Made by a program: the position numbers and the translations under genes. A stretch of DNA of 64,000 nt, taken from NCBI GenBank assembly GCA_021772675.1, contig JAJFLO010000244.1:1468-65467 (forward strand). Reading direction: 5' to 3'. The DNA is from Verrucomicrobiota bacterium (GTDB lineage: Bacteria; Verrucomicrobiota; Lentisphaeria; JABSQK01; JAJFLO01). The notes below the pieces were generated by a model that made no database searches, was not told the origin of the DNA, and was given only the letters and a program-made list of their open reading frames with translations. Positions 657-58,081 of the stretch are shown piece after piece; the stretch's first letter is position 1; every line of letters begins with the position of its first letter.

Positions 657-875
657 ATGCAGCAATTCAATTCCAACAAGATGTGGTCCCATGTCTTTCT
701 ACGTTTACAATTTCTTATCTATAGCTTTAGCCGAATCAAATCTCGTTTAAACGGCGTGCATCCCCAACAGAGCAGATGCGGCAGTCAGCTCAGGCTGTCG
801 TCATTAATACATTCGCTGACGATGACGGTAATGATGGTTTTGACATTGTCATTAGCCGTTGATACTTCGTTTGCT
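657..875 (+). other. N-terminal 55-aa basic extension followed by a signal-peptide-like segment (MTVMMVLTLSLAVDTSFA|AD)
   Basis: Translation: MQQFNSNKMWSHVFLRLQFLIYSFSRIKSRLNG...SLT then M56 (ATG 822), a hydrophobic core and an A-x-A-like SFA|A site (cleavage between nt 875/876). Which start is used (657 or 822) is unresolved. Confidence 0.5.
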
Positions 876-24800: not shown

Positions 24801-27800
24801 GTCCTGATGGATAACACCACTGATTTTGATAATGACGGTTTAATACTGCTGGAAGAAAGTCTTGCTTTAACTGATCCCACCAATGCTGATACGGATAATG
24901 ACGGGATTATTGACGGGGATGAAGTCAATTTATATCAATCTTCTCCCCTGCTTCCTGACACAGATGACGATGAAGTAAACGATAAACTTGAAGCTGAAAA
25001 CGGTAGTATCCTGGTTGATTCGCTAAGCCCGTTATTGGATCGTGTTTTGAGGGTGACTGCAGACAATAGTGATCCATCATTAGATTCTTACGTTTCGTTC
25101 TCTGATAATGATCGTTTTGTGTTAATAGATTTTACCATTGAGGCATGGGTCTTTCAGGACTCACTTTCTGAAAGTGTCATCGCAAAACGATATATCGAAA
25201 ACGTCACTTTCCCGAATAACGAACAAATTAATTATGAATTAGGTATTGACGGAAATTCGCTTCCCTATATAAGATATTCTGATGTTCTGGGCATTGAACA
25301 CAAGTTGACAGCGATAGCTGCAATAGGAGGAGGAGTTCAGACCGGAGTCTGGACACATATAGCCGTCAGTTTCAATTCAATAACTCGGGAACTAAGAATT
25401 TATTTGAATGGACTGCTGGTTGGTTCAAATCGCAATACTGCTGTCCCCTGGATAGGCGGTGAAAATGCAATCATCCAAATCGGCAAAGGCTTTACCGGAT
25501 TAATCGATGAATTAAAAATCTGGAATATTACCAGAAGCGCTAACGAAATTGCTGATAACAGAATATTGTTTTCGACGGGCAACGAAACGGGTTTGGTTTC
25601 ATATTTAAGATTTGACGATGGTGGAATATTTGTTGAAGATTTTACGCAACTAAATGATTGGCAGAATAATTGGATCAATTCAGCAATGTTAATCAATGGA
25701 AGTATTACTGAAAGTGCTCCAAGTGACGCACCGGTTACAAGTAAAGATGTTGATACGGATGGCGATGGCTTGCCGGATTTCTGGGAAGATTTACATGGCT
25801 TGAATCCTCTGGACAGTAGTGGTTTAAATGGCGCTGATGGTGATTTGGATGGTGACGGGATCATAAATTTAAATGAATTTCAGGCTGGGTTAAATCCAGG
25901 CAATGAAGATACGGATGCAGACGGTACCAGCGACGGTAACGAAGATACGGACCTTGACGGATTGTCAAACTTTGATGAACAAAACAATTATAACACAAAT
26001 CTGGGCAGCAGAGATTCCGATGAAGACGGAGTTAGTGATGGTGCGGAGGTTTCCGGTGATCCAAATAACAGCGGTGTTATAAATCCTGAATTAATTTCCA
26101 ATCCAAAATTAAGCATGTCACATTTTGATCCCGTTACCAATGATTTTACACCGGCGCGCAGTTTGGATTTTGGCATTGTTGCTTCCGAATTGACGTCTCA
26201 AGTGCCCCCTTTGACCTGGACAGGGATTCAAGTACCGCTTGGAAGTCGATTTAATAGAGCCGGAAACCCGTGGTCCATTGAATCATGGATCAAACTGGGC
26301 AACGATGATACTGGTATTATTGCAATATATAAGGTGGAGGGTAAGGCTGCAATGGAACTGGGTATGGAAGCAGGAGCGCCTTATGTTAGTTTTGAAACCG
26401 GAGGTGGCCGCAGCTATAAGGCGGGTGGTTCCAATGCACTCGATTCTTTAAAACCCAATGAATGGAATTATGTCGCTGGAGTATGGGATGTAGGCAATTT
26501 TCAAAACGTATTATTAATTTATGTAAATGGAATACTGAAAGGCAGCTTTATTTCAAACGAAATACCCATTGTGGGAACCGGAGAAATGATTATCGGGGGT
26601 GACGGCAGTGGAACTTCAGATACGACATTTAGTGACGGTAAGATTGATGAGGTTCGAATTTGGAAAACAGCGCGGTCTGCTCAAGACATTAAAGCTAATT
26701 TCAGAAAGCAAATTAGTGAGAAGAACACCGACCTAATCGCGTATTATCGGTTTGATGATGGTGGACTTACTATCGAAGATTTTTCCAATTCAATTCAATT
26801 GGATTCTTCAGCAGATGAATTTGCATTAGATTTGACTGCATTAGGAGTCTCCACGTCGAATGGAACTTCAAACGCGCTTATTACGGACGACGTACCTAAT
26901 ATAACAGGATTTGACAGCGATGACGACGGCCTCCTGGATTTATGGGAAATACAATTTTTTGGAAATGCCGAAAGTAAGGATGGAATGGAAGACAGCGATG
27001 GAGATGGATTGACCGACATCTCAGAATTTTGGTCCAATACCAATCCGTTGGTATCAGATTCAGATGGTGACGGTATTCCGGATGGAAAGGAAGATTTTGA
27101 TGGAGATCAGCTGCAAAATATTGAAGAGCAGAGTCTACAGACATTCCCTCAATTCGAGGATTCCGATGATGATGGACTTAATGATGGATTTGAATTATCG
27201 GACGTGGGAACTTTACCAAATGATCCGTTATCGCCATCTACTCAAATAAGTTTGGACGTTAAGGAGGGGCTGTTTGCAAGTGTCGAACATCAGGATCGGC
27301 ACGATTCGGAAAGCTGGACAATCGAAGCATGGGTTTACCCGCGAGGGCATCGAGCAGGGAATAATACGGGGGGACTTTTAAACATTGTTCAGCGACAAAC
27401 AGGAGCAATTAATGCTGGGGACCTCATTCACTATGAGATGGGTGTTGATGAAGATTTTTACTATCCGTATGCACGATTTACCACACGGTTTCAGCAGAAT
27501 GAAATCGACAGTATAGAAGTAACACGGTTGGATATAAAGGGTATTAACACAGGAATCTATTACTTTGATGCGAATGCAAGCGGGGACTATACTGCAGGAG
27601 AGTTTATCTGGAGGGATGAAATTGCAATAAATTCTAATTCTCAGGTTTATGATGATTTGACCGATGTCCGAATTCTTCCTGAAGCAGACGACAATGCATG
27701 GGCCGCATTAAATGGAAACCGGGGTATCACTAAGGGAGTTTTCTATTTTGATCTTGATAATAACGGCATCTTCACACCGGGGGAAGAGTTATGGAAGGAT

Positions 27801-30800
27801 GAAAGCACAGGTCGAAGCGGCCTCTATGATTCCGGTATAGATTCACGGATTAATACTATTAATACGTTTGGCTGGGAGGTTAAGAACGGCGATGGCGGTG
27901 TTAATCATGGAGATATTTTCTTTTATGACGTGAATGGAAACAATGTTTTTGACGGAACAGAAGATGTGTGGCAAGATGTTGAAGTACCTGGTGTTACGGT
28001 TTTAGGAACATTTGATTTTGGTCTCGATACCCAAATCGCTGGTGGGGCGGATGGATGGAATACCTCAGACGGACAGCTCGGTGCGGCTGAAAGTAATATG
28101 TTATTGTATAATGACGCGGATACCAACAATGAGTATACGATCGGTGAGAATATTTGGTTCGATAATAACGACAACGGACTTTATGATGCTGGGAGCGATG
28201 GTATACCGTTAACCAGTGATGATGACGATGCTTATGTTTATGATGGCGGTGTGTCTAAATGGACTCATTTAGCGGTGACTTATGATTTTGAATCAAGGGA
28301 ACTTTCAATATATCTTAATGGCGAGTTAAGAAATTCCGTGAAATTAAGTATACTAAACCGTCCTTCTGTGGTCGGAAACGGACAAAGCATCATACGTATT
28401 GGAGAGAATTTTGATGGATATATTGACAATGTCAGAATATGGGCCGTTTCTCGAAGTGCTACTGAAATACTTGATAATTTCGAATCTGCATTCAGCCAGT
28501 CACAAGCGCTGAACCAGGCGGTAATAAGAGTTTTTGGTGACTTTCTTACAGATGTTCGCTATCGCGAAAATGGCGATGGCGTGTTTACTCCGGGTGTAGA
28601 TGATGTCTGGATAGATGTGGGATTTTCACATGACAGAACAGATCCATTTACGGCACTTGATACCACGGTATTCGCTCTGGATGATCTGGGCATTCCGATC
28701 GATCAGCAAGGTCTTGCACTTGCAAACTTTCGGTTTAAAGATAATGATTCTAATTTTCTTTTTACAACCGGTGTCGACGATGCCTGGATTGACGTTAACA
28801 GAAATTCTCGTTTTGATAGTTTTGAGTTGATTGTTGTTGAAAATGGCAGTCTGTCCGAGGGCGATTTCGGGCGTTCTAGGAATGGTGTTTTTTATAGAGA
28901 GAGGAGCGCAAATGGTAAGTTTGATCAAGGAAATGATGACGCCTGGATTGACAGAAATGCAAACGGTTTTTTTGATACGGGTTCCGTCGTGTTTGACGAT
29001 ATCTTAGGGGAATTTGTTCAATTACCAAATGAGACTGTTCTCTCTCAGGGAAAGACATTAAGAAATTTCGATGCCGGTGTTAATTTGTTAAATGTTCTTT
29101 TTAGAGACAATAATCTTGACGGTATTTTTACCGAAAATGTGGACGATGCATGGCTTGACGCTGATTCCAATAAACGCTTTGATATCGGAGAAAATATTGT
29201 TGTTAATAATGGGGAACCTCTTGGTGTCGGCAAGCCGTTGTTGATCGCAAATTTTAATTTCGATGATGGTGGTAATTTTGCGAATGACGATACCATAGTG
29301 AATACTCCTCTAGATAATTGGTTTTATTCTCTAAGAATCTCCGATAGCAATGGCTTCAATTCTCTGACAGATGTAAATTCAAGCCTGACTTTTGTTGTCA
29401 CCCGCTTCCAGGATTTTGACGGTGACGGCCTTGACGATACTTGGGAATTTGAAAATTTTGGAGATTTATCAGCGACAAATGGCGGCACCAGTGATGCAGA
29501 TTTGGATGGTTTAACCGATACATTGGAATTTCTATTTGATTCGGATCCTAATGATCCGGATGGAGATACCGATAACGACGGGTTATCGGATTTAGATGAA
29601 TTTAATTCAGGTTCAAATCCGCTGGTTTCCGATACCGATGATGATGGAATTAGTGATAAGCAGGAAGTGGATTTTGACTATGATCCGATTGAATCGGCAA
29701 ATGTGTATCATCAACGCTATCTTAGATTTGACGGTACTGGGGAAATGGTGGTACCCGCCAAAGTTAACAATTCCTCCGCGTCTGAACAACGATTTAATTT
29801 AAGAGAATGGACGATAGAAACCTGGCTCCGCATCAATGAGCCAAGTAACGGGGCAAATATATTCAAAAATGTTATCAAAACCGATTTGGGGTCGGTGATC
29901 AATTATGAACTGGGCATTGATGATGGAGCCGAAACTGAGGCCGACATGGGGAAACTTTTTGTTAAGACACAAGTTCCTGCATTGTCACCGGCAATCATGC
30001 AAAAATCTAAGGATCCGATTCAAATTGGAAATTGGGTACATGTTGTCGCCCGGCTTACTACAACCAGTTTGGATTTGATCGTAGATGGTATCATATCTAC
30101 AAGAATCGCAGTTATCCCGGATGCAATAAATTTTCCTGATGAGCCGGGAAAATTAAGTATAGGCGGAGCAGGATTTAAAGGTGATTTACATGAAACACGA
30201 TTGTGGAATCACAGTCGAAGTGAGAGTGAATTAGCGACGTGGCGTCAACGATCGCTATTGTTTGACCGACAGTCCTCCAGTGATGATGCCGATTCTGCTG
30301 AATCATCAGGCAACTCCTTTACAGCAAAGAGCATTAGAGGCATAGATGTCGAGTTTATTCCGGAAACAAAGGCGGGTACCATTACCAGACCTCCTCTTCC
30401 GGCGATCAAGGTGCCTCACGTTATTCAGTATGTCTATGAGGAAAGTAAGAACTCGAAAGATTTTCTCAGACAGATGACACTGTCAGCCCGGGCAAGAATC
30501 CTTAAACTGCCGGAGACATTTGCAGTGATTGTCGGGCGGCATCGCGATGGGCTATTGGATCAAACAAGAGGGGAAACTCCACTTTCTTTTCATAATATTG
30601 ATGTTGATACACGCAATGAAATCAGCAATATTGATTTCGGTATAGTTGTTACTAATGAAGGTACGGTATTTGGAATAGTCAATGGTGTCTCAGTAGCACG
30701 AAATGCGATACAGGTATACGAACCTTTGGTAACTGATGATCAAGGTGTAGTGGCGGAAGCTACCTGGAAAAATCTTGTTTTAGTTAATGATGGAGTCACC

Positions 30801-33800
30801 GTAAGATTATATGTTGATAACAGTCTAATCGGGAGCAGCCCTACACCGAAGATTGTTAATTATGACATTAATGGTGTTATTGTTGTGGGCCTGTCGAAAA
30901 CGATTACTACATTACTGACAGAGGCTATCCCGGAAATTAAGGAATTGCGAAATGATGGTGCGACCACCTCTAACCCTGACTGGGTTCCACAGTGGGAAGC
31001 TGATATTGATGAAGTTTCTGTTTGGGATCGAGCCTGGCGTGATGATGAACGTGATTTGTATGCTGAGTTTTCATTATTGGGTACTGAAAAGGGGCTTGTC
31101 AGTTATTTTGATTTTAATTCATGGATAGTAGAGGATGAAACCGTCACCGATTCAGCATTGATCAGGCAGGAGTCCAACGATCTTTCAGGTAATATTGATG
31201 TCGGACGTCTGACGCCGTGGATGGACGCTCAATGGCGTGATCTCATTGAGGCTGCTGTTCATCCTGACGGGACAACCTATTCTCCAATTGCTGAAGCAAA
31301 TGGAAGTGAAACTGTTGGATTGAGTAGAGTGGCATTAAAGAACCATATCAACAATCTTGCCGGTTACTGGCCCTATATAGATGGTGGAAAAAGAGTGGAG
31401 GACTTTGTATTTCCCCGTGTTTTGGCCTATGCGGCGCAGGGTAGCACTGCAAATGCGATAACGTTCCATACATTTAGTAATGATCTGAATAACAATCGAC
31501 AGTTGGATCCCTCAGAGTCTATACCCGTAATAGATCGTGTCGCATATACCAATAATGTGGGTACAGTTTTCGATACCAATTTGGATCAATTAATTCAGAT
31601 TGGAGTCCTGAACTATAATGATTTAGACAATAGCAGGGATTATTCGTCAGGGGAAGATATTTGGAAAGACAGTACGTCAGGGTTATTCTCCGGATTTTAC
31701 GAACATGGTATTGATATTCAAATATTTGACGGGGGTAATGGCTGGGAAACCAATGATGGTCAAAGTGGCATTATTTCAGGTCTCTTTTTTCATGATACTG
31801 GTGAAACGGGTGACTATACGGTTGGCGTAGATGATATATGGTTAAATAAATCTAATATGGAGGATCGTCTATATAATGATGGTATAGATGTACAACTATT
31901 CGATGGTGGTGACGGTTGGACCACAGTTGACGGAGCGTTGGGGGTAGGTATATATCGTGAATTTACACCGACGTTTGATGATTCAGATTTTGACGGTCTA
32001 CCTGATACATGGGAAATATTTTACAGAATGGATCCGAATCTTACACTTGACAGCGCTGCGACTGAAGGTGGTTCGGGAGATTCAGATGGGGACGGCCTGA
32101 TCAATATCGTTGAATTTCGTGTCGGTCTTAATCCCACATCAGTTGATACTGACGGCGATGGTATTTCGGACGCAAATGAAGACGCAGATAATGATGGATT
32201 AGGAAATCTTGACGAACAAAGCATTGAAACAAATCCATTTTTCGCGGATTCCGATGATGATGGTTTCGATGATCTGGAAGAATTCAATCAGGGCTCTGAT
32301 CCCACATTATCGACAAGTTTCTACGAACAGCGTTTAGGTCGATTTGACGGGAACCAAACGTTAGAAATCAATGCAGCAATACCCGGCACTGATGAAGCAC
32401 GACGATATAATTTGGAGGAATGGACCATCGAGACATGGGTTAAATTGTCAACTTTTAATGCAAACTCAACAATAATACTAATTCAAAATCAAGTCATCGT
32501 TGATAATGTATTTCGGACAAATTATGAGTTAGGTATTGAAGTGGATAGTTTGGGTATTGCTAAACCGTATGCCAGATTTGAAAATAATGCCGGTACAGAA
32601 TCCAAAATAGTCGGACCAAGATCAATTTCAGTAAATGAATGGACGCATCTTGCCGCTGCAATGAATGGCGCTACTCTTGTTCTCTATCAGAATTTACACA
32701 TCTCTCAGCGGGATGTCATATTTACGCTGGGTTTAATTCAAGACAGTAATTTGACGGTCGGTCAAAATTTGAATGGTGATATGGATGAGGTGCGAATTTG
32801 GAATCGAGTGCGCAGTTTCAATCAGCTTGTTCAAAATCATAATACCACGCTGTTTTTCAATTCACAGCAAGCGGATCGAGGATTAGGATTGGAAACGGGT
32901 CTTGCCGCCAATGGCGACGATACATTTTTGCAGCAGATTACCTTTGATGATAAAGATATATTAATCGAAGCAACAATATCAGCATGGTTCAGGACGACTG
33001 GTTCAGGAGTATTAGTTCGACATGGCGAGCAAGGTGCCGTCACCGACATTGGCAATCAATTTAATAAAGATGATTACCGGATTGAAATCGGTACCGATGG
33101 TAAACTCGCTGTATTCTGGTTTGAAAATCGGCCCGATAGTGTTACCCGAGGAGACAATGATTTTGCCAGGTTGCAGTTTAAGTCGATTGAGGATGTCAAT
33201 GACGGGCTTTTCCATCATGTTGTTTTAACACAAGATACTCAGGGCAGAGCGACTCTCTATGTCGACGGTATAGCAAACGCGGTTAAAGATACTCGATGGT
33301 TTTGGTGGAGTCAATATTTGGCTGGACGTAGAACGACGGAACTGCGTATTGGTGAAGGGTTTGTTAACGGGGCCATCGATGAAGTTTCTATATGGAATAT
33401 TGCTAAACCGTCATTGTGGGTTCAGGAGACATTCGATACCAAACGCCAACTCCAGGGTAGCGAGGATGGTTTGATTACATATTTTGATTTTAATGGTGAA
33501 GAAATTGCAAAAGGTAGAATTGCTGATAGAGCTTTAATTCGTCAGGGAACGGGTGAAGATGGATTTCTATTTAATGGTGCCTCGCGTACACGAGAGGCAA
33601 ATTCTCCAGTGTTCATGGACCCGTTATTATCGTTTCAGGGATTAATTGTTGGCTATTGGGCATTTGATGATGGTGGAATGACGATTGAAGATTTTGCTCA
33701 TCGTGGTGAGCGTAGTTTTTTTGCAACAGGACCTACCATCGTTGCGCATGACGAGGACTTAGCTATTCCGTTTGAATTTGATGGTGATGGTGATGGATTA

Positions 33801-36800
33801 TCGGATGAATGGGAGGTTGCAAATGGACTCAATCCTAATTCACCTCTTGGAAATAATGGATTTGATGGCGATCCCGATAATGATGGATTAAATAATTTGG
33901 AGGAGTTTCAGGCTGGGACAGATCCTCTTGTTCTTGACACGGACAATAATGGCGTCAACGATGGGTTTACTGATCTGGATAATGACGGTTTAATTGCATT
34001 AGACGAAATTAAATTTGGAACAAATCCTGGGGTCGCGGACACTGATGACGACGGTATTATTGATGGTCGGGAAATCCATTTATTGAAACCAACACAAAAT
34101 GCGAGTCAAACTGGACTTTTTTATAATGACCTTAATGGTAATAGCAGTTATGACTTGGGGGAAGATCTATGGAAAGATGAAGCGTATAAGGTTCTTTTCT
34201 CTGCTGAGTCTGATTTTCAATCAGAATTGAATAAAGGAGAAATACCATTTAGTTTGATGAGCAATTTTGAGGATAACGGCATTTCGTTATCCACTACTGC
34301 GGTTGTTACTGTGATATTAGAAAGTAGTGAATGGAGAATCACGAGTGATACAAGAGAATTCATTCTCAATAAGAAAACTGATGAATTAATTGTCGCAGAT
34401 TTTTTAATTACGGGAACAAATAGTGAATATGATGATGGTGTTGATATTCCTGTATATGATGGTGGTGATGGATGGGAGACGGACAGTACCAATGATATTC
34501 CTGAAATCATGGGTGTCTACTTTAATGATGCAAATAATGACTCTGAATACAGTATTGGTGAGGATATCTGGGATGATCAAGTTTCAGGCAGGGACGGGTT
34601 ATATGATGATGCGATCGACAAGCGATTATTCAATGGAAACGATGGCTGGATCACGCACATAGAGCAGATAATTACCAGCCCGATTTATTCCAGAAGTCCA
34701 TTGATTCAAAGAAGTTTTATGCTACCAGAATTGAGTATAGAATTACCGGATCCGGTAATTCTTGTAACCGATGTTCAACGATACAACCGGCGGCGTTGGA
34801 CATTGGAAGTATGGATAAAACCAGCGTCTGCTAACGAAGTAGGTTCAATCGTTACTCGAATTCAAGATCTTACCAATCTCGTACAATTTGAACTTGGCTT
34901 GGAGCATAATATCCCCTATGTTCGATTTGAAACGCCTGCCAATGTTGAATATAGGGCCGTTGCGAATGGTATTATTCTTGAAAATGGTGTTTGGACCCAT
35001 ATTGCAGGCAGTTTTGATCCGGAAAGCAAATCTTTGAGACTGTATGTAAACGGACGCCTGTTTCAATCGTTTACTACCCTTGAAAATCCAGTATCGGGAT
35101 TCGGAAAAACATTCATAAACGGAATACCAGATGACGTTGATCGATTAAGTGGAATGATTGATGAATTCAGAATTTGGAGTTATGTAAGGTCAAATGAAGA
35201 AATTGAAAATAATTATAATACTACAATATTGGATGAAATTGGGATCGTATTAGATCGAGAAACTTTCGCTGAACCAATGTCTGAGTTAGACGTTGCTATA
35301 GATCCGGTTACAAAGTTGCTAAATGGTTGGTCAAAAACTCCAAATGTGGATGTGAACCAGTGGGAGTATGGCGTTCCTGTGGGAGGTGTTGCTACCGGCG
35401 AGAATGCATTCGCCTATAATTTAATCGGTAACTACCCCGCAGATTTGGGAAAGCAATTTTTACTTTCCCCAATTTTTGATGTCAGTGATTTTAGTCAGGT
35501 ATTGTTAGAATACAACCGCTTTCTTGCAGTCGATGCATCGTCAAATGCAAGTATCGAGATAAGTAATGGATCACGCGACGGTGATGGAAATTTAATATGG
35601 TTTGAAATATTCAGGAATTCTGGAAGATTGAGAGATAGCGAGTGGAGTAAGCGAACACTCGATATCTCACAATTTGCTGACGGCAAATCTAATGTCCAGA
35701 TACGATGGATTATGGGACCAACTGGCAGTGCTACAGCCCCCGGAGGGGCGGGCGGTTCCGGATCAGGTAGTCAAGCTGTTTTTAATGGTGAATTTGGTTG
35801 GCGAATTGATGATGTCGTTTTAACAGGACGGAACACATCACAAACCGTGACAGCTTACTTTCCATTTGATGATGGCGGAAAATTTATCGAAAATTTTGCT
35901 GCATTGGGAAATTTTGATTTGGCATTGGATCGTATTCGCCATGATTTAGTCATTGTCGACACTAATGAAGAAGTTAAACAGCTTCCTGGTCTTGCTGACA
36001 TTGACAATGATGGCCTGGCAGATTGGTGGGAAAGGCTGTTTTTTGGCAACAATCTTCTTATCACTGATGGAACTATTGATAGCGATGGTGATGGATTACT
36101 TGATAAATTTGAATTTATTCTTGGGACAAACCCATTTGATCTGGACAGTGACAGTGATGGGTTTAGTGATGCCAGCGAGGATTTTGATGGCGATGGGGTG
36201 TTTAATCTACAGGAACAATTATTGACCACCGATCCAACTCTAGTTGATACAGATGATGATAATGTCCTTGATGGAGACGAACTTGATGACAATACGGACC
36301 CAGCGGATGGCAATAGTCATATTTCGCCAACTGAATTGGCAATAAATTTTGCAGGCAATAGCCTTGATTACGTTCAGCTACCCCAGCAAGAGCGCTTCGT
36401 TTTAGATAAATTTACTATTGAAGCCTGGGTACGGCCATTTGCAGAAATACACACTGGTGAATCGGTTGCAAGTTTTAATGATGGGGAAATTATTCGAAGA
36501 GTATCTGGAAGTACATTTTTGGGAGGGGATCCCAATTCAATAATTTTCATAACAAATTTTGGCCTCAGGATCGTGGGTGGTCAATTTCAAGCGTATTTCA
36601 GCAGTAATCAAGAAGGTGGTGAAGTCGTTGCAGCGAGCCCTACGATTTTGCCTGCCGAAGTTGGGCTTATATCCTGGGTTCACGTGGCCGCAAGTTATGA
36701 TCCTTCTTTGAATGCCCTTCGCTTATTTGTTAATGGTCAACTTGTACAGTCTACAGTAAGCTCAAAAAGTTTAATCACGGATGGACCAGGTAGGGAATTC

Positions 36801-39800
36801 GTTCGAATCGGGGAGCAATTCAATGGAGATATCGATGAAGTCCGAATTTGGAAAGCGTCATTAAGTCAGCAAGTTATTGAAACGAATCTTGTCACGGCGC
36901 TGAATGGAACAGAAACTAATCTTATCGCCTATTATAATTTTAATGACAATAGTTCACTCAATCCAAAAAGTACCCAGGATAACGTCGGTGAATTCACAAG
37001 GGATTGGGAGAATAATTGGGGTAATTCAGGCATATTGATTGGCAATACAGCTTTCTTTGAAGTTATCGATAATCCACTGAACCCAGATGTTGATAGTGAC
37101 GGTGACAAATTACCTGACCGCTGGGAATTGGACAATTTTGGCGATCTTTCCATTGCCGATTCAACGACGGATGTCGATGGCGATAAATTACTGGATATAA
37201 ATGAATTTCTTATTGGATTAAATCCAAACGCCGTTGACTCAGACAGCAATGGAATATTAGATAGCGATGAAGATAGTGATGCAGACGGATTGATTAATGT
37301 TGAAGAGCAAAATGATTTCCAAACTCGTTTAGATTCTGCTGACAGTGATGATGATGGAATTAATGATAATATTGAAATTTCGTTTACCCTGCCAACAATT
37401 GATTCCGTTGAAGGTATCGCTAGTGGTTACAGTGGAGCCAGAACTCCGTTATCTCCATTTGTTCCCAGAAGTTTACGGTTGGAAGGCAGTGTCATATCCA
37501 TTCCAAAACCGGATCGGTTTGCGTTTGTTAGCACTGAAACAGTTGTTCAGGAGGGACCCACGGTAAATATTACCAGTCCTACGGACTCTTCAGATATAAA
37601 TGTGAGATTCGTAAATGTTTCCGGAACGATTGAATCGACATCAGATATCATTGGAATTCAATTTTTTGTAAATCAGCTTCTCGCAGATGAATTTCCGCTT
37701 AGTGAAGCCAGTTTTTCAAGGGATATAATTATCAGTTCAGGCATGAATGAAATCGCTGTCAAGGTTGAAAATGTTGAGGGACAATTTGGATTAGCTTTTG
37801 TTACAGTCAACGGAAGCTTTGCACCTGCAGATATTCGAGTTACCCAAACCTGGGGGCCCGCAGGGGATCTTGATACGTGGCTTGTCGATCCTCAAAACCG
37901 GCATATGGGCTGGACCGGATCCGGCCCGACATTTCCTCTGGAGCAGGCCGGTGAATCGGGGAATCCAGGACAAATTCCCGGTGCACAATTAGACATTGAT
38001 GATATACCCGGCACAGGACCAGAAAATATTACGCTAGAGCGCGACAACGCAGTGCCAGGCACCTATCAGGTTTGGATGAACAATTATTCAAATTCCAATA
38101 GCCCAGAATCGACGGTAAGAATATTGCTTCATGAAGGTACTCCAAATGAGAAACTAATTGAATTTGGTCCACAAAGTATGCCAACAAGTGATACTAACAG
38201 AAATGTTTCCGCCGCCTGGTGGAATACCACGAACATTGAGTGGCCAAGCGGCGTGTTAAGTCCTTCAGGGACAGAAATCTCACCAAGGAGTACTCGGGAA
38301 TCACTGGTAATTACAGAGCAATCTAATACTGGCTTTACAATTGAATTTTGGATTTATCCTGGTAGTGCCTCAGAAACTGGTTCAGTGATCGAATATCTTA
38401 ATTCCAGTGGCACTGCAGCCTATACTCTTGGTCTTAATGTGAACCGACCATTCATGCAGGTCTTGTCCGAATTACCAACGGGTTACGAGTCATTGACAGT
38501 TGATACCGCATTACCTGAAAATGTATGGTCTCATTTAACGTTCAGATATCGTTTTGACGTAAATGAAATGAGCATATCAGTCAATGGATCGTTTGCTGCA
38601 AAAACGGTTAAAACCATTATCTTAAATGAAGGCGGTACCGCAGTCATAGATAGTTCGTTTAACGGAATTTCATTTACCAATACAGGTATCGATGAATTAA
38701 GAGTCTGGAATACTATAAAAACAGAAAATAGTATAAATGCATTCAGACACAAATTTGTCGATGGTGCTAACGCCGCTTTAGTCGCAAATTTCCGATTTGA
38801 CGATGGTGGAAAAACGATCACCGATTACGCAAATACAGCGATCGAATTTGATTTACTTTCATTACTTGATCAACGAATTGATATATTGCCGGGAGGTGAC
38901 GATACCTGGGGCAATGCAGATGATGTGTTTGCATCTGATAGTGCAAAATGGATTGATGTTAACGCGAATAATATATTTGATATCGAAGACGAAGTGTTTA
39001 CCGACGCGAATAATGATAATATTTATAATGTCGGCGAAACGCAATTATTTGATGGTGGTGATGGTTGGACAAGTGTTCCGGATGTCTCCGTTGGACGTGT
39101 GGACAATCATAATGATCGGATTACCGCATTTCGGGCCGCATTAATAATCGGATCTGCGGAAGATTCCGACGGGGATGGCATAGAAGACTGGTACGAATCA
39201 TTCTTTTTCCGTGGCTTGACTGCAACTTCAGGACTAAATGACGGAGATAGTGATGGTCTGATAGATCGATATGAGTTCTTTGCTGGCACTAGCCCTCTAA
39301 ATAGTGACACGGATAGTAATGGAAAATCCGATGGCTTCGAAGATTCAATCGATGGAGATGGTCTTAGTAATCTTGATGAACAGGCACACTCCTCCGATCC
39401 GCGTTTGAGCGACACTGATGACGATGGAAAATCAGACAAAGCGGAAGTCTTAAGCGGAAATAATCCGACAGATTCTTTGGATCCTGTAGAAGCCAGGGCA
39501 CTGCATGTGTTAGGTAGCAGCTATGCAGAATCACCTATCGATACTCAACGCTATGGGTTCGACAGTTTTACAATTCAGGCGTGGGTTTACCCTTCAGATC
39601 TGGCTGCCGGTGGTGGTACTATTGACTCATCCATAATTTCCAGACAAGTCGGAACAGGAAAATATAACTACGATCTTGGTGTTAGATATAACACAGATTC
39701 CGATAAGGTTCAACCCTATGTAACCGTTTCTCCTAAAGATGGATCCACAAATGTTCAACTGATAGGAAATGTGATCTATTCAATTCCAATTAGTGATTGG

Positions 39801-42800
39801 TCTCATATTGCTGCAACATATAGTCGTGGTAGTCGATCGTTGGAGCTTTATGTTAATGGTCAAAAAATTTCTTCTACAGTTGTTACGAATGGCATAATGA
39901 CAACCGGTTTTGGACCAATCTGGGTGCGGTTTGGTGAAGGATTTACTGGATTTATTGATGAGGTTAGATTGGAGAAAACAGCTATAAGTCTATCACGAAT
40001 TCAGTTCGGCATGCATAGCCAGCCTGATATTAGTTCAGGACAATTGGCAGCCTATTTTAATTTTGATGATGGTGGAGATAATATTCATAATTTGGTATCA
40101 TCATTTAGCAGGGATTGGGAAGAGCAGTGGCTGCATTCTTTGATTGTGATTGGCAATGCTGTGGTTGAATCAGCCCCGATGGCTGTTCCAACAGTACAAT
40201 CTGGTATTGATAAAGATGGTGATGGTATCAGCGACAGCTGGGAACTACAACATTTCGGTTTAATTTCTCAAGTAAATGGCCGTGGTGATTTTGATAACGA
40301 TGGTGTCAATGATCTGTATGAATTTTTGAATGGTTCAGATCCACGATCGATTGGCTCAGATGCTGAAGATGACAAGGATAGTGATGGACTATCTACCATT
40401 GAAGAGCAGGCACATGGAACATTACCGCAAGAGCAAGATACTGATGATGATGGCCTGAATGATAAGGCTGAAATAGCGGCCGGGTCAAGTCCATTACATT
40501 CAATGAGTCCTCTAACAGAACGAGCATTGGATTTAGCACAAGTCGCTGCGACGGGAGTACAATTACCGTTTGCTGCAAATGAACTAAATAATCGGTTAGT
40601 CGATTGGACAATAGAATCTTGGATTCTAATAAAAGGAAATCAGACTGGGGCAATTTTAAGTAAATCTATCAATGGCCGTATCGGGTTTGAACTTGGATTA
40701 GTGGATAATGTGCCTTATGTCAGATTTCAAAAAGCAAGTGGAGATGTTAATATCGACTATTCTTCAAGCCAAAGTTCAGTGACTACGCCAGCCCTCCAGG
40801 TAAATAATGGGTGGGTACATTTAGCGGGTGTCTGGAATCGAGGCACTAATGTGCTTCGGCTTATTATTAATGGAAACACAATTATCGAGACACTGGTAGG
40901 CAGTTCCGTTTGGCCAATAGATGGATTTGGTTTAGTCACATTAGGTGCGGGGTTGGATAATGTTGTCATTGATGAGGTCCGAATTTGGAAAACCTTTCGT
41001 AGTCAAGTCGACATTGATAGTGATAGATGGAATTTGATTTCGTCAAAGAGTGCGGGTTTAGTTCGTTATTTCAGGTTCGATGACGGTGGTGATACTATTG
41101 AAGATTTTGCTCATCCCGGATTTAAAAATGAGTCAATATATGCATTTATAGCGCCGGGTGTTACCGTGTCTGATGCCCAAGCATATTTTGGATTAGATGA
41201 CCGTGACGATGATGGGATGCCGGACTGGTTTGAAAGTCTTTACAACGTTTCTGACGCTAATGAGGATTCGGATGGGGATCAACTTACAAATCTATACGAG
41301 TATTTTGGTAAGACTGATCCAATAATTAATCTTACGAGTGATTTGAAATCGGATCCGGATGGAGACGATCTTGATAATATTACTGAACAGAAATGGGGAA
41401 CTAATCCAAATATGTGGGATACGGATAATGACGGTTGGTCCGATGGGCATGAAGTGCTGGGTAAGGATGATATTGCTTTTGATGCAGATAATGATGGTAC
41501 TAGCGATCTAGCATCAAGTACCATATTACCACGTCGTCCAAGTAGTTTCACTTTTGCCAGTGATCCGCTAAGCCCATTACAGCCTGTTCAGCAAGCAAGT
41601 ATAAAGCTTACGGGATTGAATGTTGGTGCTGTGGTACCAGACAACAGTAAGTATGCTTTAAACAGCTGGACTATTGAAGCTTGGATTAGACCTACAGCGG
41701 ATAATTCTGGCGTGATCCTAAACCGTTCAGTTGGCTACAATAATGGATCATCCATTATTAATTACGAACTTGGTATCGCTAACGATAGCGGAGTGCTGCG
41801 ACCTTATGCAAAATACGTCACTCAATCCGGTGTTACCTATAGCGTTGGTGGTGCGGATGCTATCGTTCCTTTTGGCCATGTTTTGTCTGTATCCAATGGT
41901 GTCTGGACTCATTTGACTGCAACATTTGATCAAGCAAGTTATACATTGAGACTCTTTATTAATGGTATGCCGGTTGGCGAACGGATTGATTCGAGTGAAT
42001 TTCCAGTTTGTCCAGTGGCAGGAAATGGGCAGGCACTGGTCAGTACAGCTCCTGATACGTTTGTATTCGTTGGAGCAAGTGTTCAAATTGGCAGTGGATT
42101 TACAGGCAATATTGATGATATAAAAATTTGGGCTGGTGCTCGAGATGGCGACATAATATTCGATTCGTATCGTTCGGTTGATGCAAATGCCAGGGGCGGT
42201 GTCGAGCCTTTGAGTCATGATTCGTCCATCGTTGGCTCTGGTTTGGTTGATGTCAGTGTTTTGTTAAATGCGGATCACGAGACAGACGAATTATTGGTAT
42301 GCTATCGTCATGATTTGAATAAAATACAACGCGATGAACTCAATGAATCCATGAACGTCGTATTGATTAGAGAAAGTCCTTTGACGGGAATTCAGTTGGT
42401 TAAAATCGCGAAAGATAAATCGATGGCAGATAAGATTCTTGAGTTCAGGTCAAATAACGATGTGTTATATGTCGAACCAAATTACAAACTTAAAATTCCA
42501 AATGATATTATCGAATCGAATCAATCTGTACCGGATTCATTTTCCTTTCCTAATGATCCGAATTTCGATCAACAGTGGGGACTTCATAATATTGGACAAA
42601 CCGGTGGTTCCGCTGGTGCGGACATTAATGGTCCACAAGCCTGGGATATTACACGAGGTTCACGGGATGTTATCGTCGCTGTAATTGATACTGGTGTTGA
42701 CTATAATCATCCCGATATTGCTGGAAACATGTGGGTGAATGAAGGAGAAATACCCGGCAACAGCATTGATGATGATAACAATGGGTTTATAGATGACATT

Positions 42801-45800
42801 TATGGTTATGATTTTGCCAATAATGACAGTGATCCAGTAGACGATAATTTTCATGGTACACACGTTGCCGGTATAATTGGGGCCATTGGCAATAATAATG
42901 AAGGGATCGTCGGGGTTAACTGGAATGTTCGCATTATGGCACTTAAAATATTCAATAGTTCCGGTGTTGGTAACGCTGGTACGACAGATGATGCGATACA
43001 GGCCATCGAATATGCGATTCAAATGGGTGCAACATTTACCAACAACAGCTGGGGAGGTGGGGGCTTCTCGCAAGCCTTGAAGGACACGATTGAACGAGCA
43101 GGTGAAGCAGGTCAGCTTTTTGTTGCCGCAGCTGGGAACGATAACTCAGACAACGATGCCACGCCATCATATCCTGATTCATATGATTTGGATAATATTA
43201 TTTCAGTTGCTGCGAGTACCGATCGCGATAGTTTGGCGTCATTTAGTAATTTCGGCGCGGAAAATGTTGATTTGATGGCCCCAGGTCAAGGGATTATAAG
43301 TACTGTTCTAAATAATCAATATGAAACAGTTTCTGGAACGTCACAAGCAGCACCTCATGTTTCAGGTGTGGCCGCATTAATTCATGCAGCAAATCCTAGC
43401 TGGTCGTGGGATCAGGTTAAAAACGCGATTCTTAATAATGTTGACGAAATCCCAGATATTGAAGGGAAAATAGCAACATCTGGGCGCCTAAATGCCGTGT
43501 CAGCACTTAGTCGCGGAGGCGCGTTGAATCTGGTTGCATATTTTCGTAGTGATGCAGGTATCGGCGTCCAAGGCGCAATCGCGTCCAGCCTAGTAAGCGC
43601 TGCAAGTATAATTCATGATTTAACAGAAATGGACGATTGGTCCCTGAACCTTAATGGACGAACTGGGAAATTTGCGGCCAAATTAGTTAATGCGTCTATT
43701 GACGACGTCGAGTTTGCCTTGATGCCTGGAGATATTGACGGTGACGGTATGCCAGACTGGTTTGAAACTGCTTATGATCTCAATGTATTCGGTGAGGACG
43801 CAAATGACGATGAAGACGTAGATGCTTTAACCAACTATTACGAATTTTTAGCTGGTACAAGCCCAATCGATTTTGCAACCAATGGTCAAACCGCTGACAT
43901 AATTGCAGATTCAGATATTGACCAGATTTCGAATCAAGATGAACAAATTACTGGCTCACATCCCGGCGATATCAATGCGGACACGGACAACGATGGGTTG
44001 ACCGATATTATTGAACAATCGGGGGACAATCCGACATCTGTAACGGATTCATTATCACCCTTTAAGGATCGTGCATTAAAGGTTAACTCAAGTACCAATG
44101 ACTTTTTAGTATTACCAAATCAACCTCGATTTTCTATGGGTAACAGTTGGACGGTTGAAGCAATGGTAAATCTAGACAAATTCTGTAAAGATAATCAAGA
44201 TAATATCGTAAATGGTGGAGTCGTTGATGATAAGGCCGTTATCATCAGCAGAGCAATTGATGATAATGCCGATGGTGCGTTTAATGCAATAAATTATGAG
44301 TTAGGAATTAGCGCGATTGGAAAACCCTATGTGTTGTTTACTAGTGCAACTATTCCAGGTACAAATTTTAATATTGAGTTTAAAGCGGAAGCCTCAACTC
44401 AATTAGAATGTGGTTTATGGACGTTTATCGCAGGTAGTTATAATGCACAAGAACAAACATTGGGGATTTACGTCAATAAAGTGTTGTGGGTGGAAATTTC
44501 GACTGCATTTGAACCGGCTGGGTCCGAACCGGGTAAAACTGAAGTTGTTGCTGGTAATAACTTAACGGGTCAAATTGATAATTTAAGGATTTGGAACAGT
44601 CACTTTGGCAGCATTGTTGCCGCTGAGATTGAAAGTAACGGATTCGATCTATCAAATGATTTGGTTGCATTTTACAGTTTTAATGACGGTGGAACTCACA
44701 TTCAGGATTTTGCCTCAGGATTTGAAGATGATTGGAAAACAGGCTGGTTTAATGCAGCACAGTTTGCTGGAAGCGCGGCACTAAATGACCAACTTGGTGA
44801 TGATGGAGTTGATCTGAATGCTGACAGTGATGACGATGGTATTCCGGATTGGTGGGAACTGCTTCATTTTGGACATTTGAGTATCGTGGAAAAAGATAGT
44901 AAGTCTGATTCAGATGGGGATGATTTGACTGATATCTTTGAGTATTTATCAGCGACAAATCCCAATTTAGTGGATTCCGACGGAGATGGAATTGAAGACT
45001 TTGACGAAGACGTAGATAATGATAACGTCTTAAATCTTGACGAACAGGATTTTGGAACTAATCCCGGATTGAAGGATACTGATGACGATGGTAAAAGGGA
45101 TGATGTAGAGTTATTTACGAATTTTACTGATGCCAGGGATAGTCTAAATCCAAGAGTTGAACGTGTCTTAAACATTAATAACGGCTATTTATCGGTAAGC
45201 AATAACGATAACTTAAGTTTGTCAGAATTTTCAGTCGCCGTTTACGTAAATCCAAGTGTTAACGCATTAGTTGATCAAGTCATTCTTGAGAAAGTTGGAG
45301 ATGATGAAAAGCTGAATTACCAACTGGTACTTCAGGCAAATAACAAGGTCAAATTTCTATATCATCGCGATCAGTCCGGTACACCACGCGAGGTTACTTC
45401 GACAGCAACATTGAGTTTTAATTTATGGTCGTTGATAATTGCCGAACTTGATAGTACCAACGAGAAAATCAAGTTAACGATATATGCCCGCGACAATATC
45501 AATAATTTAATCGAAAAATCGTTTAATGAAAATGATGCCTTTGGTGACCCGGTTACTGGTGTGGGTCCGTTGTATATTGGATCATCAAAACCTGTTTCTG
45601 GAACAACACCAGTAGGGCAATTTCAAGGGATGATTGACGAACTATCAATTTGGCCTAATCCATTGACCAGTACGGAAGTTAATGATATTCAAAATCTTTC
45701 TATAAGCGTAAATGACGAAGTTTCACGTGCCAAGTTAGCTGCGTATTACAAGTTTAATGACGGGGGTGAAACTGTCGAAGATTTCGCTCATGATAATGAC

Positions 45801-48800
45801 ATAAATTTTGCTGCAAAATTTAGTGTCTTGGTGCGAAATAATACAACAATTCACTTTTTGGACAATACATCAACGCTACCTGTAGGTACGACAATTGGCA
45901 ATGTTGAAGATTCCGATACTGACGGTTTGCCCGACGATATTGAACTGCTTATTATCGAAGCTATTGGTAATGATGGAATTGATGATCTGGAACATGTTGA
46001 TCCAGAGGGTGATTTTGATAGTGATGGTTTGACTAACCTTCAGGAAGTTCAGTTCGATGGTGATCCTGCTTATAATAATCTGACTGATACAAATCCAATT
46101 GAATTTGATTCAGACAGTGATGGTATGGCGGACGGTTGGGAAGTTCAATTTTTATTAAATCCATTGAGCAGCACTGATCGAGATACGGATAATGATGGAG
46201 ATGGTCTCACGAATCTCGATGAGTATCTTGGAGAAAACGGAAAGATCGATGGTAACGACATCATATTGACTGCGACACCTATTGTATGGGGTGATTCCAC
46301 TGATCCAGGTAATGTTGATACTGATAGCGACGGTTTAAGTGATTTTTGGGAAGTGAATTTTAAAATCGATGCATTGACAGCAAATGCCGATGCCGATCCC
46401 GATTTAGATGGATTAATAAATATTGTGGAACGTGATAACCAGACCAATCCAAATAAGAGAGATAGCGACAATGACGGATTAGTCGATAAATGGGAAGTCG
46501 ACAATGGTTTTAATCCTGTTGATATCCTTAATCCAGATACAAATGGCGATCCAGATGCTGATAACTTAAATAATGTCAATGAACAATCTGCAGGAACAGA
46601 TCCCAGAAATCCAGACACAGATGGTGATGGCCTACCGGACGGGTGGGAAAAAATGAGTGTTAATAGCCAGGGCACATCTCTCAATCCGTTAGATGACGGA
46701 ATCGATGATACCGATCCAACAATCACGAATGGAATTCACGGAGCTAATGGCGATCCAGACCTGGATGGTATTTTTAATAAAGATGAGTTTACTGACCTGA
46801 CAGATCCCTGGGTAGCAAATAATGTTAATGTTGTGGAACCAAATATTGCAAATACTATCGCTCCCAATATTGATGACATCAGTGTCAATATTTCACCTCT
46901 CAAACCATTTATTGGTAGTGAATTGACATGTACGGTTGATGGCGGTTCTGATCCCGATCTTGATGACTTTTTTCCAAAGTTTCAGTGGTATCGGGCTATC
47001 TCTGGAAATGGTCGCATAGTGGTGAATGCAACCCCATTGATTGGAATCGGCGAACAGCAGCTATTTGAGATAGTCGCCGCCAATTCCGATGATATAATTA
47101 ATCTTAATAACCAGATAATTACGACTAATTTAGATTCAGAGTTTACCACTGGAGGTCACGAGTTATCGACCGGAGCGCTGGTTACAGTAATATCGCCTGA
47201 TGAAGAATGGTACATTAAGGATGGCGTGAATGAATTCGCACTGAGGAAAGAGGGAACTAAAGTTGTCGTATATGATCGTGGAACCTTTACGGATGACACA
47301 TCTAACCTCAATGGAAATAATATTACTGCTAACTTAAGATCACAGTTTATCTCTGGGGGGCAAACCTTATCGGAAGCTGCCAAGGTTCGATTGATTTTGG
47401 GCGATTCAGAATGGCATATCAAAGATGGAACTGATGATTATGTGCTTAAATTGGAAGCTGATGGAACGAAACCGATACTAAATGTCTATGATGGTATTGA
47501 TCCTACGGGTCTAGACCCTGGATTAGTGGATGCAAATGGAGATGCCATTACTCAGGGAGCAGATAAAGGAAACTGGGTGGCAATAATCGGAGCGACGAAT
47601 AATACCTATATGGCGGGCAATATTCCACAGGATTATGTGTGTATTGTCTACCTTGAAGATGAATTTGGTAATTCTACCGATCGCATTTTTAGTAATGTCA
47701 TTTTCTCCATAGAGGAGATTGTCATGACTGATCAAGGGCAGCAGGTTAACGTTATTGACCTATCACCCAAGGTGAAAATCACGGAAGACAAGGTCAATAA
47801 CAAGTTAGTTGCCGCAATCACAAATGAACCGGCTAATTTGGAAACCGGAACAACAATTGGATATAATTATCGATGGTTTAGAAACTTTGGTGATCGCGCT
47901 GGTGAGGATCTAAACCGTACTGGGTCAATTTTAACTATCGATGAGGAAGTTTTAAACGGCGATGTCTGGTATGTTAGAGTCAGCAGTACGATTACAAAAG
48001 GAGGAGTTAGTGGTATTGAAATTCCCGATGTGTTTAGCAATTCCATAACAATTGGGGGAGGCGTGACTGAAAATAGCAAACCGACGAACCCAACGGTTTC
48101 AATAATTCCTTCGAATCCACAAGCAGCATTTGATGATATTACATGTGTTCCCTCGGGTTCTGTAGACCCTGACGGAGATTTATTCTTGTTCGACATTAAA
48201 TGGTTTGAATTTAACTCAACAACCAATTCCTTAGACCCATTACTAAACAGCTCAGGCGCACAATTCACGACTGAAACAATATTGGCGGAAGATACTGCAA
48301 CCTTTACAGGAAAACTTATTTCCTGTCGCGTTACCGCGGTTGATATTTTTGCTAATTCAAGTGCTCCAATTGATAGTGCAAATGTAACAGTAAAATCGGC
48401 TGAGAGTGGATCTGGCACAGGTGGTACGATAAATGGCGACGGCTTTGAACCAGATAATAGTGTGGCAACCGCTCGGCCAATTGAAGTCAATACCCAGGTT
48501 CAACAGCATGACTTACGTGAAGACGCGGACGAACAGGATTGGGTTAAATTCAGGATAAAAACAAGGTCAAAAATCTCAGTTTTTACCGGAAATAGTGAAA
48601 CGGTTATCAATCAAATTCAATCCAATAGTAATCTCAATGGACAAGGGGATTCGCATGTAGATACATTTTTGGAGTTGTTCAGTTCCGGTAATACCAGCTC
48701 TGCATTGAGGTTTAATGATAATACCGGTGATACTGCTCGAAATGATTTTACATTGTCCGCAAAGATTCTTAATGCTATTTTGAATCCGGGTACCTATTAT

Positions 48801-50535: not shown

Positions 50536-51669
50536 TTATAATTTTAGTTTATCCTTCACATATATTGAATAGATTTTATACAGACTTTCCATTGATTCAA
50601 TATCAATCCATTCATTTTCGGTGTGGAGATTCCCAACCAGCGGACGTGAAATAATAACCGGGATATCATTATACGAAAAAAAACGCCCGTCGCTACCGCC
50701 ATGCGAATGACACAATGCCGGTTTCGAACTGGTTACCTGCTCAACTGCATTCAGGAAGATTGGATCGGGTTCAAACTGTGTTGGTTCCGCACAAATGATT
50801 ATGTTCAAATTCATTGATTTATTAAGCAACTCTTTTATGTCATCTAGGATTGCATCAACCGAATGCGGGAAAGGGAAGCGAATGTCAAAAACGCAAGATG
50901 CTTCCGCAGGAATACAATTGATAGTTTTATTTGGGGTGTGGATTTGAGTGACTGCGCAGGTCGGGTGCCAATGATTTTTACTGGTTTTGTAGGACTCAAA
51001 AAGTTTTTGGAGCTTAACGATTACTTCGGTAATTTGTTGAAGTGGATTTACGCCAAGCCAGGGACGAGCAGCGTGTGCTTCATGCCCTTTACAATCCAAT
51101 CGTAAATGAATAAGGCCTTTTTCTTCAACAATTATTTCTGTTAATGATCCACCGTCCGGTATTAATACAACGCCACATCGCAGACCGATTTCATTGACCA
51201 GATAGCGAATGCCGGAGTATCCGCCAGTTTCCTCATCTGAAGTGACGACTAATCCAAGTGAAAGGCCATTGTATTGACTATGAGCCTCTCGGAATAGTTC
51301 AAGCATAACGGCTAATGCCCCTTTCATATCCCCTGCGCCTGGACCATATATGCGCCCATTGGTAATTGTGGATCGATAAATCGAAAGATCTGGATGGCTC
51401 ACAACATCCACGTGACCACATAACAAAATATCGGGCGTCCTAATTCCTTTTGGCAATGCCAATAGCGATGGAATGCCATTCGGTCTAAACTCCTGTAAAT
51501 TGATTTGATCCAATGATTCCAGATGATATTTGATTACTTCCAATCCACGTTCGCGCTCCTTAGGATTGGCTTCGGCGCTAGGGATCAAAACGAGGTCCCG
51601 TGTCAAAGAAACCAGTGATTCCTGAAGATGATTAAATGCAGGCGACTGGTCAATTGGATTATGATTCAT
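50536..51669 (-). CDS. M20-family metallopeptidase / deacylase (ArgE/DapE-like)
   Basis: 377-aa ORF with M20 metal-ligand motifs: LCGHVDVV (H-x-D), GPGAGDMKG (bridging Asp), TSDEETGG (Glu-Glu) and a lid/dimerisation insert. Confidence 0.85.
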   Translation of the reverse strand: MNHNPIDQSPAFNHLQESLVSLTRDLVLIPSAEANPKERERGLEVIKYHLESLDQINLQEFRPNGIPSLLALPKGIRTPDILLCGHVDVVSHPDLSIYRSTITNGRIYGPGAGDMKGALAVMLELFREAHSQYNGLSLGLVVTSDEETGGYSGIRYLVNEIGLRCGVVLIPDGGSLTEIIVEEKGLIHLRLDCKGHEAHAARPWLGVNPLQQITEVIVKLQKLFESYKTSKNHWHPTCAVTQIHTPNKTINCIPAEASCVFDIRFPFPHSVDAILDDIKELLNKSMNLNIIICAEPTQFEPDPIFLNAVEQVTSSKPALCHSHGGSDGRFFSYNDIPVIISRPLVGNLHTENEWIDIESMESLYKIYSIYVKDKLKL

Positions 51670-58031: not shown

Positions 58032-58081
58032 TTTGTCTATCCGAATATACTTAAGTGATTTTTAAAAGATGTGCGTTTATT

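Follow-up and report, generated by a model that had tools for sequence, protein, structure and literature searches.

A subtilase with its own prodomain embedded in a giant LamG-repeat protein of a Verrucomicrobiota bacterium

The DNA analyzed here is a stretch of 64,000 nucleotides from a Verrucomicrobiota bacterium (assembly GCA_021772675.1, contig JAJFLO010000244.1, positions 1,468 to 65,467), which we refer to as the window and in whose coordinates all nucleotide positions are given. It encodes a giant protein of LamG and TSP3 repeats in which a subtilase is embedded together with its prodomain. Judged from the sequence, this segment is apparently a genuine and catalytically competent pro-subtilase that combines a fervidolysin-type prodomain with a deseasin/thermitase-like S8A domain. 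The most likely reading, to which we assign a probability of about one half, is that it serves as a self-processing, fibre-borne protease that acts in trans.

The embedded pro-subtilase

The host protein is specified by one uninterrupted open reading frame (ORF) at 657..50261 on the forward strand, the strand of all protein features described below. Its 16,534 codons contain no internal stop and encode 16,534 amino acids (aa) with a mass of ~1.79 MDa and an isoelectric point of ~4.05. Tiled Pfam scans placed Laminin_G_3 and bacterial TSP3 repeats over almost the entire chain, while no catalytic family other than S8 was detected in it by these scans. An earlier note on this DNA had proposed a complete subtilase at 42195-43520, about 85% of the way along a structural repeat protein. 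Indeed, that segment is in frame with the giant ORF, the motifs quoted for it translate, and the protease was found at 84-86% of the protein. The catalytic motifs VIDTGVD, HGTHVAG, and SGTSQAAPHVSG are all present, and the triad codons had been placed correctly, with Asp14011 at 42687..42689 (GAT), His14066 at 42852..42854 (CAT), and Ser14229 (TCA) followed by Gln14230 at 43341..43346. The triad is thus in the Asp-His-Ser order of S8A enzymes, and the oxyanion-hole Asn14161 (AAC, 43137..43139) is likewise intact.

The catalytic domain itself (aa 13,963-14,286; 42543..43514) matched Peptidase_S8 (PF00082) with an E value of 7.7e-63 and a score of 212.9 bits, where the cut-off is 21.8, and is therefore a match far beyond chance. 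Among solved structures, the best sequence match was deseasin MCP-01 (3vv3; E 6e-98, with 51% of 328 aligned columns identical). When the module was aligned with 71 free-standing relatives, identities over the prodomain and catalytic domain ranged from 44 to 54%, and the catalytic Asp, His, and Ser were invariant, with the oxyanion Asn nearly so. Considered alone, the catalytic domain shares 50-63% identity with relatives of both kinds, free-standing and embedded, and thus bears no mark of relaxed constraint. In metagenomes, no match to the module exceeded 55% identity, and hence no close orthologue was available for an analysis of substitution rates.

Directly upstream of the catalytic domain lies the N-prodomain (aa 13,874-13,946; 42276..42494), which ends in VLYVEPNYKLK. 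It had been suggested that this segment resembles the I9 propeptide, a proposal that stood with regard to fold and not with regard to family. A prodomain of subtilisin type ending in DVLYVEPNYKLK is present, but PF05922 gave no match at E<=0.01, and the hidden Markov model that did identify it was PF22148 (Fervidolysin_NPro-like; E 1.4e-7, 32.3 bits versus a cut-off of 21). The same pair of PF22148 and S8 domains is found in most of the free-standing relatives.

The structure of the module was predicted with AlphaFold (AF2) using an alignment of 72 sequences, which yielded a predicted local distance difference test score (pLDDT) of 88.7 and a predicted template modelling score of 0.89, versus a pLDDT of 32.5 with single-sequence input. 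The prodomain (query residues 28-100) was modelled with pLDDT >90, and its strands (28-37, 55-60, 67-71, and 90-100) and helices (43-52 and 77-85) follow one another in the beta-alpha-beta-beta-alpha-beta topology that is typical of subtilisin-type (I9) prodomains. The predicted catalytic domain has the subtilisin alpha/beta fold, and Foldseek aligned it with both deseasin (3vv3; target-normalised template modelling (TM) score 0.95, root-mean-square deviation 1.3 A) and thermitase (1thm; TM 0.95, also target-normalised). The complete two-domain model superposes on pro-subtilisin E (3whi), pro-Tk-subtilisin (2e1p and 2z2z), PfSUB1 (8pol), and fervidolysin (1r6v), all of which are unprocessed or prodomain-containing structures, with query-normalised TM scores of 0.69-0.80. 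As the whole model superposes on zymogen-type subtilases, the prodomain is predicted to occupy the usual zymogen position. The earlier note had asked whether the propeptide docks in the active site, and the model does place it over the active site in the manner of these zymogens.

Insertion point and relatives

The LamG array of the giant protein has a regular layout, in which the end motif of a LamG (IDE.RIW) is followed at fixed spacing by the element LVAYYRFDDGG..EDF. Fourteen units have a spacing of exactly 32 residues and a few others one of 31-36, and the distance from the element to the next LamG core is variable across the array. In the protease-bearing unit, the upstream LamG core (41595..42131; Laminin_G_3 E 2.8e-9) terminates in IDDIKIW (aa 13819-13825), and a degenerate form of the element, AYFRSDAG (43536..43559), follows 475 residues later. 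Since 475 is 32 + 443, the pro-S8 constitutes a clean 443-aa insertion into the connector. The first half of the canonical connector and the linker to the prodomain occupy 42132..42275, where AGARDGDIIFDSYRSVDANARGG resembles the same stretch in the homolog P0227. On the other side, the element gives way to a linker and TSP3-type calcium-binding repeats (DIDGDGMPDW..., DTDNDGLTD; 43560..44093) that are collinear with the homologs P0129, P0231, and P0238, and then to the first (44094..44600; Laminin_G_3 E 3.4e-7) and the second and last (45177..45683; Laminin_G_3 E 2.6e-13) downstream LamG. LamG_3 modules therefore do flank the protease on both sides, as had been claimed.

Word-indexed homolog searches returned only proteins of ~0.57-1.75 times the query length, with maxima of 774 aa for a 442-aa query and 1,996 aa for one of 1,141 aa, and such searches are consequently blind to giant proteins. 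An exhaustive search of cluster representatives with a 1,141-aa query spanning LamG-pro-S8-TSP3-LamG recovered ~30 representatives of 0.6-7.2 kaa, several of which are cut by contig ends. Each contains one pro-S8 adjoining LamG modules, with LamG on both sides in most, and for the majority a collinear alignment at 35-41% identity covers most of the query. The named members are annotated as 'S8 family serine peptidase' and derive from metagenome-assembled genomes (MAGs) of Kiritimatiellia/Kiritimatiellota, Victivallales, and Lentisphaerota; examples are MDP6810988.1 (5,918 aa), NOY81957.1, and MBR4219855.1. The complete 5,918-aa Kiritimatiellia gene sits within a 98.9-kb contig. Although P0129 (from JGI) is truncated by its contig, with an ORF that is open into the prodomain, it reproduces the S8-TSP3-LamG junction at 41% identity.

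The spacing that corresponds to 475 residues in the window protein is 468 in P0236 and 460 in P0227, and the strings at the junctions are recognisably similar between the window protein and its homologs. The matching insertion spot, together with these strings, argues for a single ancestral insertion of the pro-S8 into the connector. Identity of the catalytic domain does not set embedded subtilases apart from free-standing ones; the case for common ancestry of the architecture rests upon the insertion point and the collinear flanks. As for conservation of the triad in homologous large proteins, which the earlier note had proposed to examine, the Asp, His, Asn, and Ser are kept in 31/31 embedded modules (32/32 including that of the window), which favors a catalytic rather than a degenerate domain. 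In addition, every homolog that is not truncated by its contig retains a prodomain ending in a Y-x-E-P-N-type motif.

The window protein resembles the other members of this family in having a signal peptide and a single pro-S8 at the same connector, and several members share an N-terminal head of ~300 aa. In the window protein, this head (aa ~215-545) matches aa ~120-470 of P0246, P0316, P0271, P0232, P0231, and P0277 at ~31% identity. It differs in being 2.3 times as long as the longest homolog listed (7,192 aa), in its longer pro/mature junction, and in the Gln after the catalytic Ser. The junction exceeds by ~14 aa that of each of the 30 homologs in which it is spanned. A PND motif occurs in it twice (KLKIPNDII...SFSFPNDPNF), which gives the impression of a partial duplication of the beginning of the mature domain. 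The last 634 aa of the window protein have no match in the LamG-S8 homologs and lack their ...FYR(V/I/L) ending, the sole match to this region being the C-terminus of P0149.

Outside of the LamG proteins, many sequences carry two or three tandem pro-S8 units, and internal prodomains are therefore not rare among metagenomic proteins. For instance, P0121 (locus L082, 6001-10416) and P0228-P0230 each contain two or three complete tandem pro-S8 units per chain, with further S8 genes adjacent in L082, and would appear to be subtilase polyproteins. Free-standing pre-pro-S8-...-LamG proteases also exist, so the C-terminal product predicted below would resemble a normal enzyme.

Proposed self-processing and its alternatives

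In prodomain-bearing subtilases, the prodomain aids folding, the pro/mature bond is cut in cis, and activity ensues once the prodomain leaves. If the embedded module behaves in the same way, the giant protein would be exported via its N-terminal signal peptide, and the prodomain would chaperone folding of the catalytic domain while covering its active site, as in the model. The module would then cut its own pro/mature junction IPNDIIESNQSVPDSF (aa 13,947-13,962; 42495..42542), a region to which the alignment, the low pLDDT, and the usual course of subtilase maturation all point as the predicted site of autoprocessing. The expected cut within IPNDIIESNQSVPDSF/SFPNDP (~aa 13,947-13,962, nt 42,495-42,542) would leave an N-terminal part of ~1.50 MDa with the prodomain at its end. 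The C-terminal part, of ~0.28 MDa, would have the mature protease at its start, followed by two LamG modules, a PPC-like module, and a C-terminal domain. After release or degradation of the prodomain, the protease, which would still be joined to lectin-like LamG modules, could act in trans, presumably as a fibre-borne degradative enzyme that works on fibre-bound material.

A PPC module had previously been placed at 48421-48870, ~5 kb downstream of the protease. PPC-like motifs (DWVKF...DTFLELF...GTYYIRV) are visible at about that distance, at 48537..48812, and the two LamG modules and ~5 kb separate them from the protease, but the earlier coordinates were one base out of frame and the scores remain below threshold (PF04151 21.2 and 17.9 bits versus a cut-off of 25.9; NCBIfam FDP_fam 23.8 versus 29). 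The PPC-like region had no sequence match in the PDB.

Of the two roles envisaged in the earlier note, cleavage of the giant protein by its own protease is the more readily accommodated, because it is the most direct consequence of the maturation of a prodomain-bearing subtilase. The other, an enzymatic payload held on a megadalton stalk, needs qualifying because, after a cut at the junction, the protease would no longer be covalently connected to the 1.5-MDa N-terminal part. It is tenable only if the nicked parts are held together non-covalently, either by binding of the prodomain or by completion of a LamG through the strand after the protease.

This last arrangement would amount to a pro-subtilase nested in a LamG, with the AYFRSDAG strand completing the preceding LamG domain. 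The cut would then nick the chain without severing it, and the tethered prodomain could serve as a reversible inhibitor of a protease that is switchable by force, calcium, or ligand. Evidence on the ownership of the AYYRFDDGG element points both ways. The fixed spacing speaks for the preceding LamG, as does the observation that the last LamG of the window protein still has the element after it while the first has none before it, both as the nested arrangement predicts. PDB entry 4dqa agrees, since its chain of 355 aa has EVRVW...LYYKLDG at residues 279-320 and no further LamG behind it. Against this stands the canonical LamG_3 topology, and in the free-standing S8-LamG proteases the element precedes the end motif by ~185 aa and forms the first strand of that same LamG, which would assign it to the following LamG. 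We consider nesting to be quite unlikely on balance. If true, the module would be a bacterial counterpart of the 'cleaved but connected' SEA/GAIN modules with an enzymatic output.

Two features weigh against a self-processing protease active in trans. Residues 107-116 of the model, which comprise the junction, have low pLDDT, so the location of the cleavage site is one that we infer. Also, Gln14230 (43344-43346), next to the nucleophile, replaces a Met that is present in 31/31 embedded homologs and in >=90% of the free-standing relatives. This position is presumably equivalent to Met222 of subtilisin BPN', where, in a series of substitutions, Gln reportedly reduces activity without abolishing it.

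The Gln recurs in the alternatives that we considered. Were the segment a pseudo-protease, i.e. a non-catalytic or permanently uncleaved module with a binding or structural role, the Gln beside the nucleophile and a junction that exceeds those of all homologs by ~14 aa would fit. However, this is improbable given that the triad and the oxyanion Asn are intact here and in all 31 homologs, that overall conservation is high, and that the fold is confidently predicted. A related proposal is that of a single-turnover latch, in which the junction of the module is its only substrate and the prodomain never leaves, as is reported for PCSK9, so as to create a nicked and possibly breakable fibre joint akin to SEA/GAIN autoproteolysis. 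All homologs have kept the internal placement and the prodomain, conservation of the triad is equally expected of a module that only cuts itself, a nested topology would suit it, and the Gln beside the Ser might reduce turnover. Yet, the 50-63% identity to degradative enzymes, which extends to the invariant and nearly invariant residues, argues for a retained general protease function. Overall, we regard such a latch as distinctly doubtful.

A stronger competitor, albeit still an unlikely one, is a polyprotein, in which the cut would fully separate a 1.5-MDa LamG/TSP3 fibre from an ordinary 278-kDa secreted S8-LamG protease, each of which would function on its own, and the fusion would serve merely for co-expression and co-export. 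The C-terminal product would indeed look like the free-standing pro-S8-...-LamG proteases, the two or three tandem pro-S8 units of other proteins make sense only if each is excised, and a precedent for such processing is found in WprA of Bacillus subtilis, which gives rise to CWBP23, a stable protein derived from the propeptide, and to the protease CWBP52 (PMC8767453). On the other hand, the pro-S8 is inserted within a repeat connector of fixed length rather than between two gene-like halves, the array resumes in register after the protease, and the position of the insertion has been kept across ~30 diverged proteins. Lastly, the presence of a protease within a repeat gene might be an artefact of assembly or gene calling that fused two genes. 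Misassembly is a common hazard with giant genes of this type, the giant protein is absent from the matches of the module searches (which are apparently length-limited), and the product of the neighbouring gene is not on record. Nevertheless, the 16,534 codons run without a stop, the repeats within the gene are short and diverged at the DNA level (60-85% identical), long exact copies were not found, base composition is even over the protease module, and both junctions recur in independent assemblies. The diverged short repeats and the even composition in particular render an artefact very improbable. A self-processing, fibre-borne protease thus remains the reading that we consider most likely.

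Surrounding features, known systems, and significance

The giant gene has a strong AAGGAG Shine-Dalgarno sequence 6 nt upstream of its ATG at 657, and the product begins with a long leader (657..875) that resembles a Sec signal peptide, with a hydrophobic segment at aa 50-68 (nt 804-860) followed by ...SFA/AD. The LamG-S8 homologs likewise begin with signal peptides. The basic 49 residues ahead of the hydrophobic core (aa 1-49; 657-803) are reminiscent of the extended signal peptides with which very large proteins are secreted. Translation may alternatively start internally at Met56. Residues 50-68 form the sole hydrophobic segment of the entire chain, and a C-terminal hydrophobic anchor is absent from the giant protein.

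Motif counts for the giant protein amount to at least 31 LamG end motifs and 120 TSP3-like calcium-binding motifs. Three tandem 300-nt copies at 6642-7619, which are 72-73% identical, form an unusually regular array rich in D-x-D-x-DG that looks to be the most recent duplication in the gene. A stretch of ~1,700 aa without LamG (~8500-13650; aa ~2,616-4,330) is repeat-like and rich in Thr, Ser, and Val, with a partial match to aa 5,225-5,750 of P0231; aa 3,001-4,000 had no Pfam match. Apart from the protease, the only non-repeat modules in the Pfam scans were a Glucodextran_B (PF09136) just over threshold and a sub-threshold DUF2135, which break the LamG array at ~37557-38150 (aa ~12,301-12,500). 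Near the C-terminus, the last ~175 aa (49734-50258) contain a twice-repeated motif pair, GWNL(I/V).P ... G(K/V)GYW(V/I)YS, whose sole local match is the C-terminus of P0149; this segment had no Pfam or PDB match, and the motif pair is not common to the LamG-S8 homologs. Sequence searches of the PDB returned nothing significant for aa 2,616-4,330, for aa 15,001-16,534, or for the C-terminal 463 aa, nor did Pfam at E<=1 for the N-terminal head and the C-termini.

Downstream of the giant gene, on the reverse strand, a 454-aa ATP-grasp-like gene and an M20/DapE-like peptidase gene (50536-53472) form a pair that is syntenic with loci of Nitrospinota MAGs (L001/L003) at 49% identity; no giant gene stands beside the M20/ATP-grasp pair in those MAGs. 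Relatives of the RapA encoded further along were found at 82% and 77% identity. The 1.95-Mb contig that encodes the 77% identical RapA (L083, ERZ18545485) keeps the PLD/RibD/RibE/RapA order of window positions 53513-60927. On the far side of RapA, the place of the ATP-grasp, M20, and giant genes is taken in this contig by ThsB-TIR and further small genes. Since L083 has no giant gene beside RapA, the giant-gene side of this neighbourhood is evidently variable. A lone radical SAM enzyme of the AmmeMemoRadiSam system (TIGR04337, E 2.9e-195) is encoded at 56934-58031 on the reverse strand, and no match to an AMMECR1 or Memo partner was obtained among the neighbouring ORFs scanned. The 326-aa ORFs found in the window and beside the Kiritimatiellia gene proved unrelated. 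The window contains no tRNA genes.

Several known subtilases bear comparison with the embedded module. Deseasin MCP-01 of Pseudoalteromonas sp. SM9913 has an S8A catalytic domain that matches closely in both sequence and predicted fold, and it is a free secreted enzyme with C-terminal domains of its own, whereas the window module lies within a giant protein, with TSP3 and LamG modules after it. The PF22148 prodomain family, its topology, and the predicted docking are shared by the module with pro-subtilisin E, pro-Tk-subtilisin, and fervidolysin. However, the prodomain of these three enzymes directly follows the signal peptide and, being N-terminal, costs nothing to remove, while 13,873 residues precede the prodomain of the window protein, such that a cut would split the fibre. 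Cell-envelope proteinases such as PrtP and ScpA likewise display a subtilase on a long stalk. In these enzymes (the lactocepin and C5a peptidase type), the S8 domain is located at the N-terminal end, so propeptide removal leaves the stalk uncut, and they have a wall anchor, unlike the window protein with its S8 at 84-86% and no C-terminal anchor.

For processing itself, WprA is comparable as a subtilase precursor that yields a stable propeptide-derived protein and a protease (PMC8767453), but at 96 kDa and without LamG repeats, versus 1.8 MDa, it is a functional analogy only. The very large adhesin FhaB of Bordetella is matured by the subtilisin autotransporter SphB1 (PMC6070651), which, in contrast, is encoded by a separate gene and acts in trans. 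Also comparable are the giant Omnitrophota proteins, whose S8 domains have been proposed to cleave them into smaller polypeptides (West-Roberts et al. 2023, bioRxiv 10.1101/2023.11.21.568195). These are also giant bacterial proteins with S8 domains, but theirs lie near the N-terminus of multi-enzyme/dockerin-type giants with transmembrane segments, rather than at 84-86% of a LamG/TSP3 fibre, and LamG is not mentioned in that paper. Our literature search returned no description of a LamG giant in which a pro-S8 is embedded. Self-cleaving S8 domains in giant proteins have thus already been proposed, and the insertion of a pro-S8 into a LamG connector is newly described here without being categorically new.

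Giant bacterial proteins are mostly unstudied, and it is a standing question whether they act as one chain or in pieces. Here, a cutting tool appears to be built into the chain at a defined and evolutionarily conserved position, with a junction of ~16 residues that can be mapped and catalytic residues that can be mutated, which makes the question testable on a recombinant fragment of 450 residues. One may speculate about an ecological role, for example in the degradation of proteins on particles or prey bound by the lectin-like modules. The subtilase prodomain, which is usually a disposable N-terminal piece, seems to have been reused deep inside a protein, where its removal would reshape a megadalton fibre.

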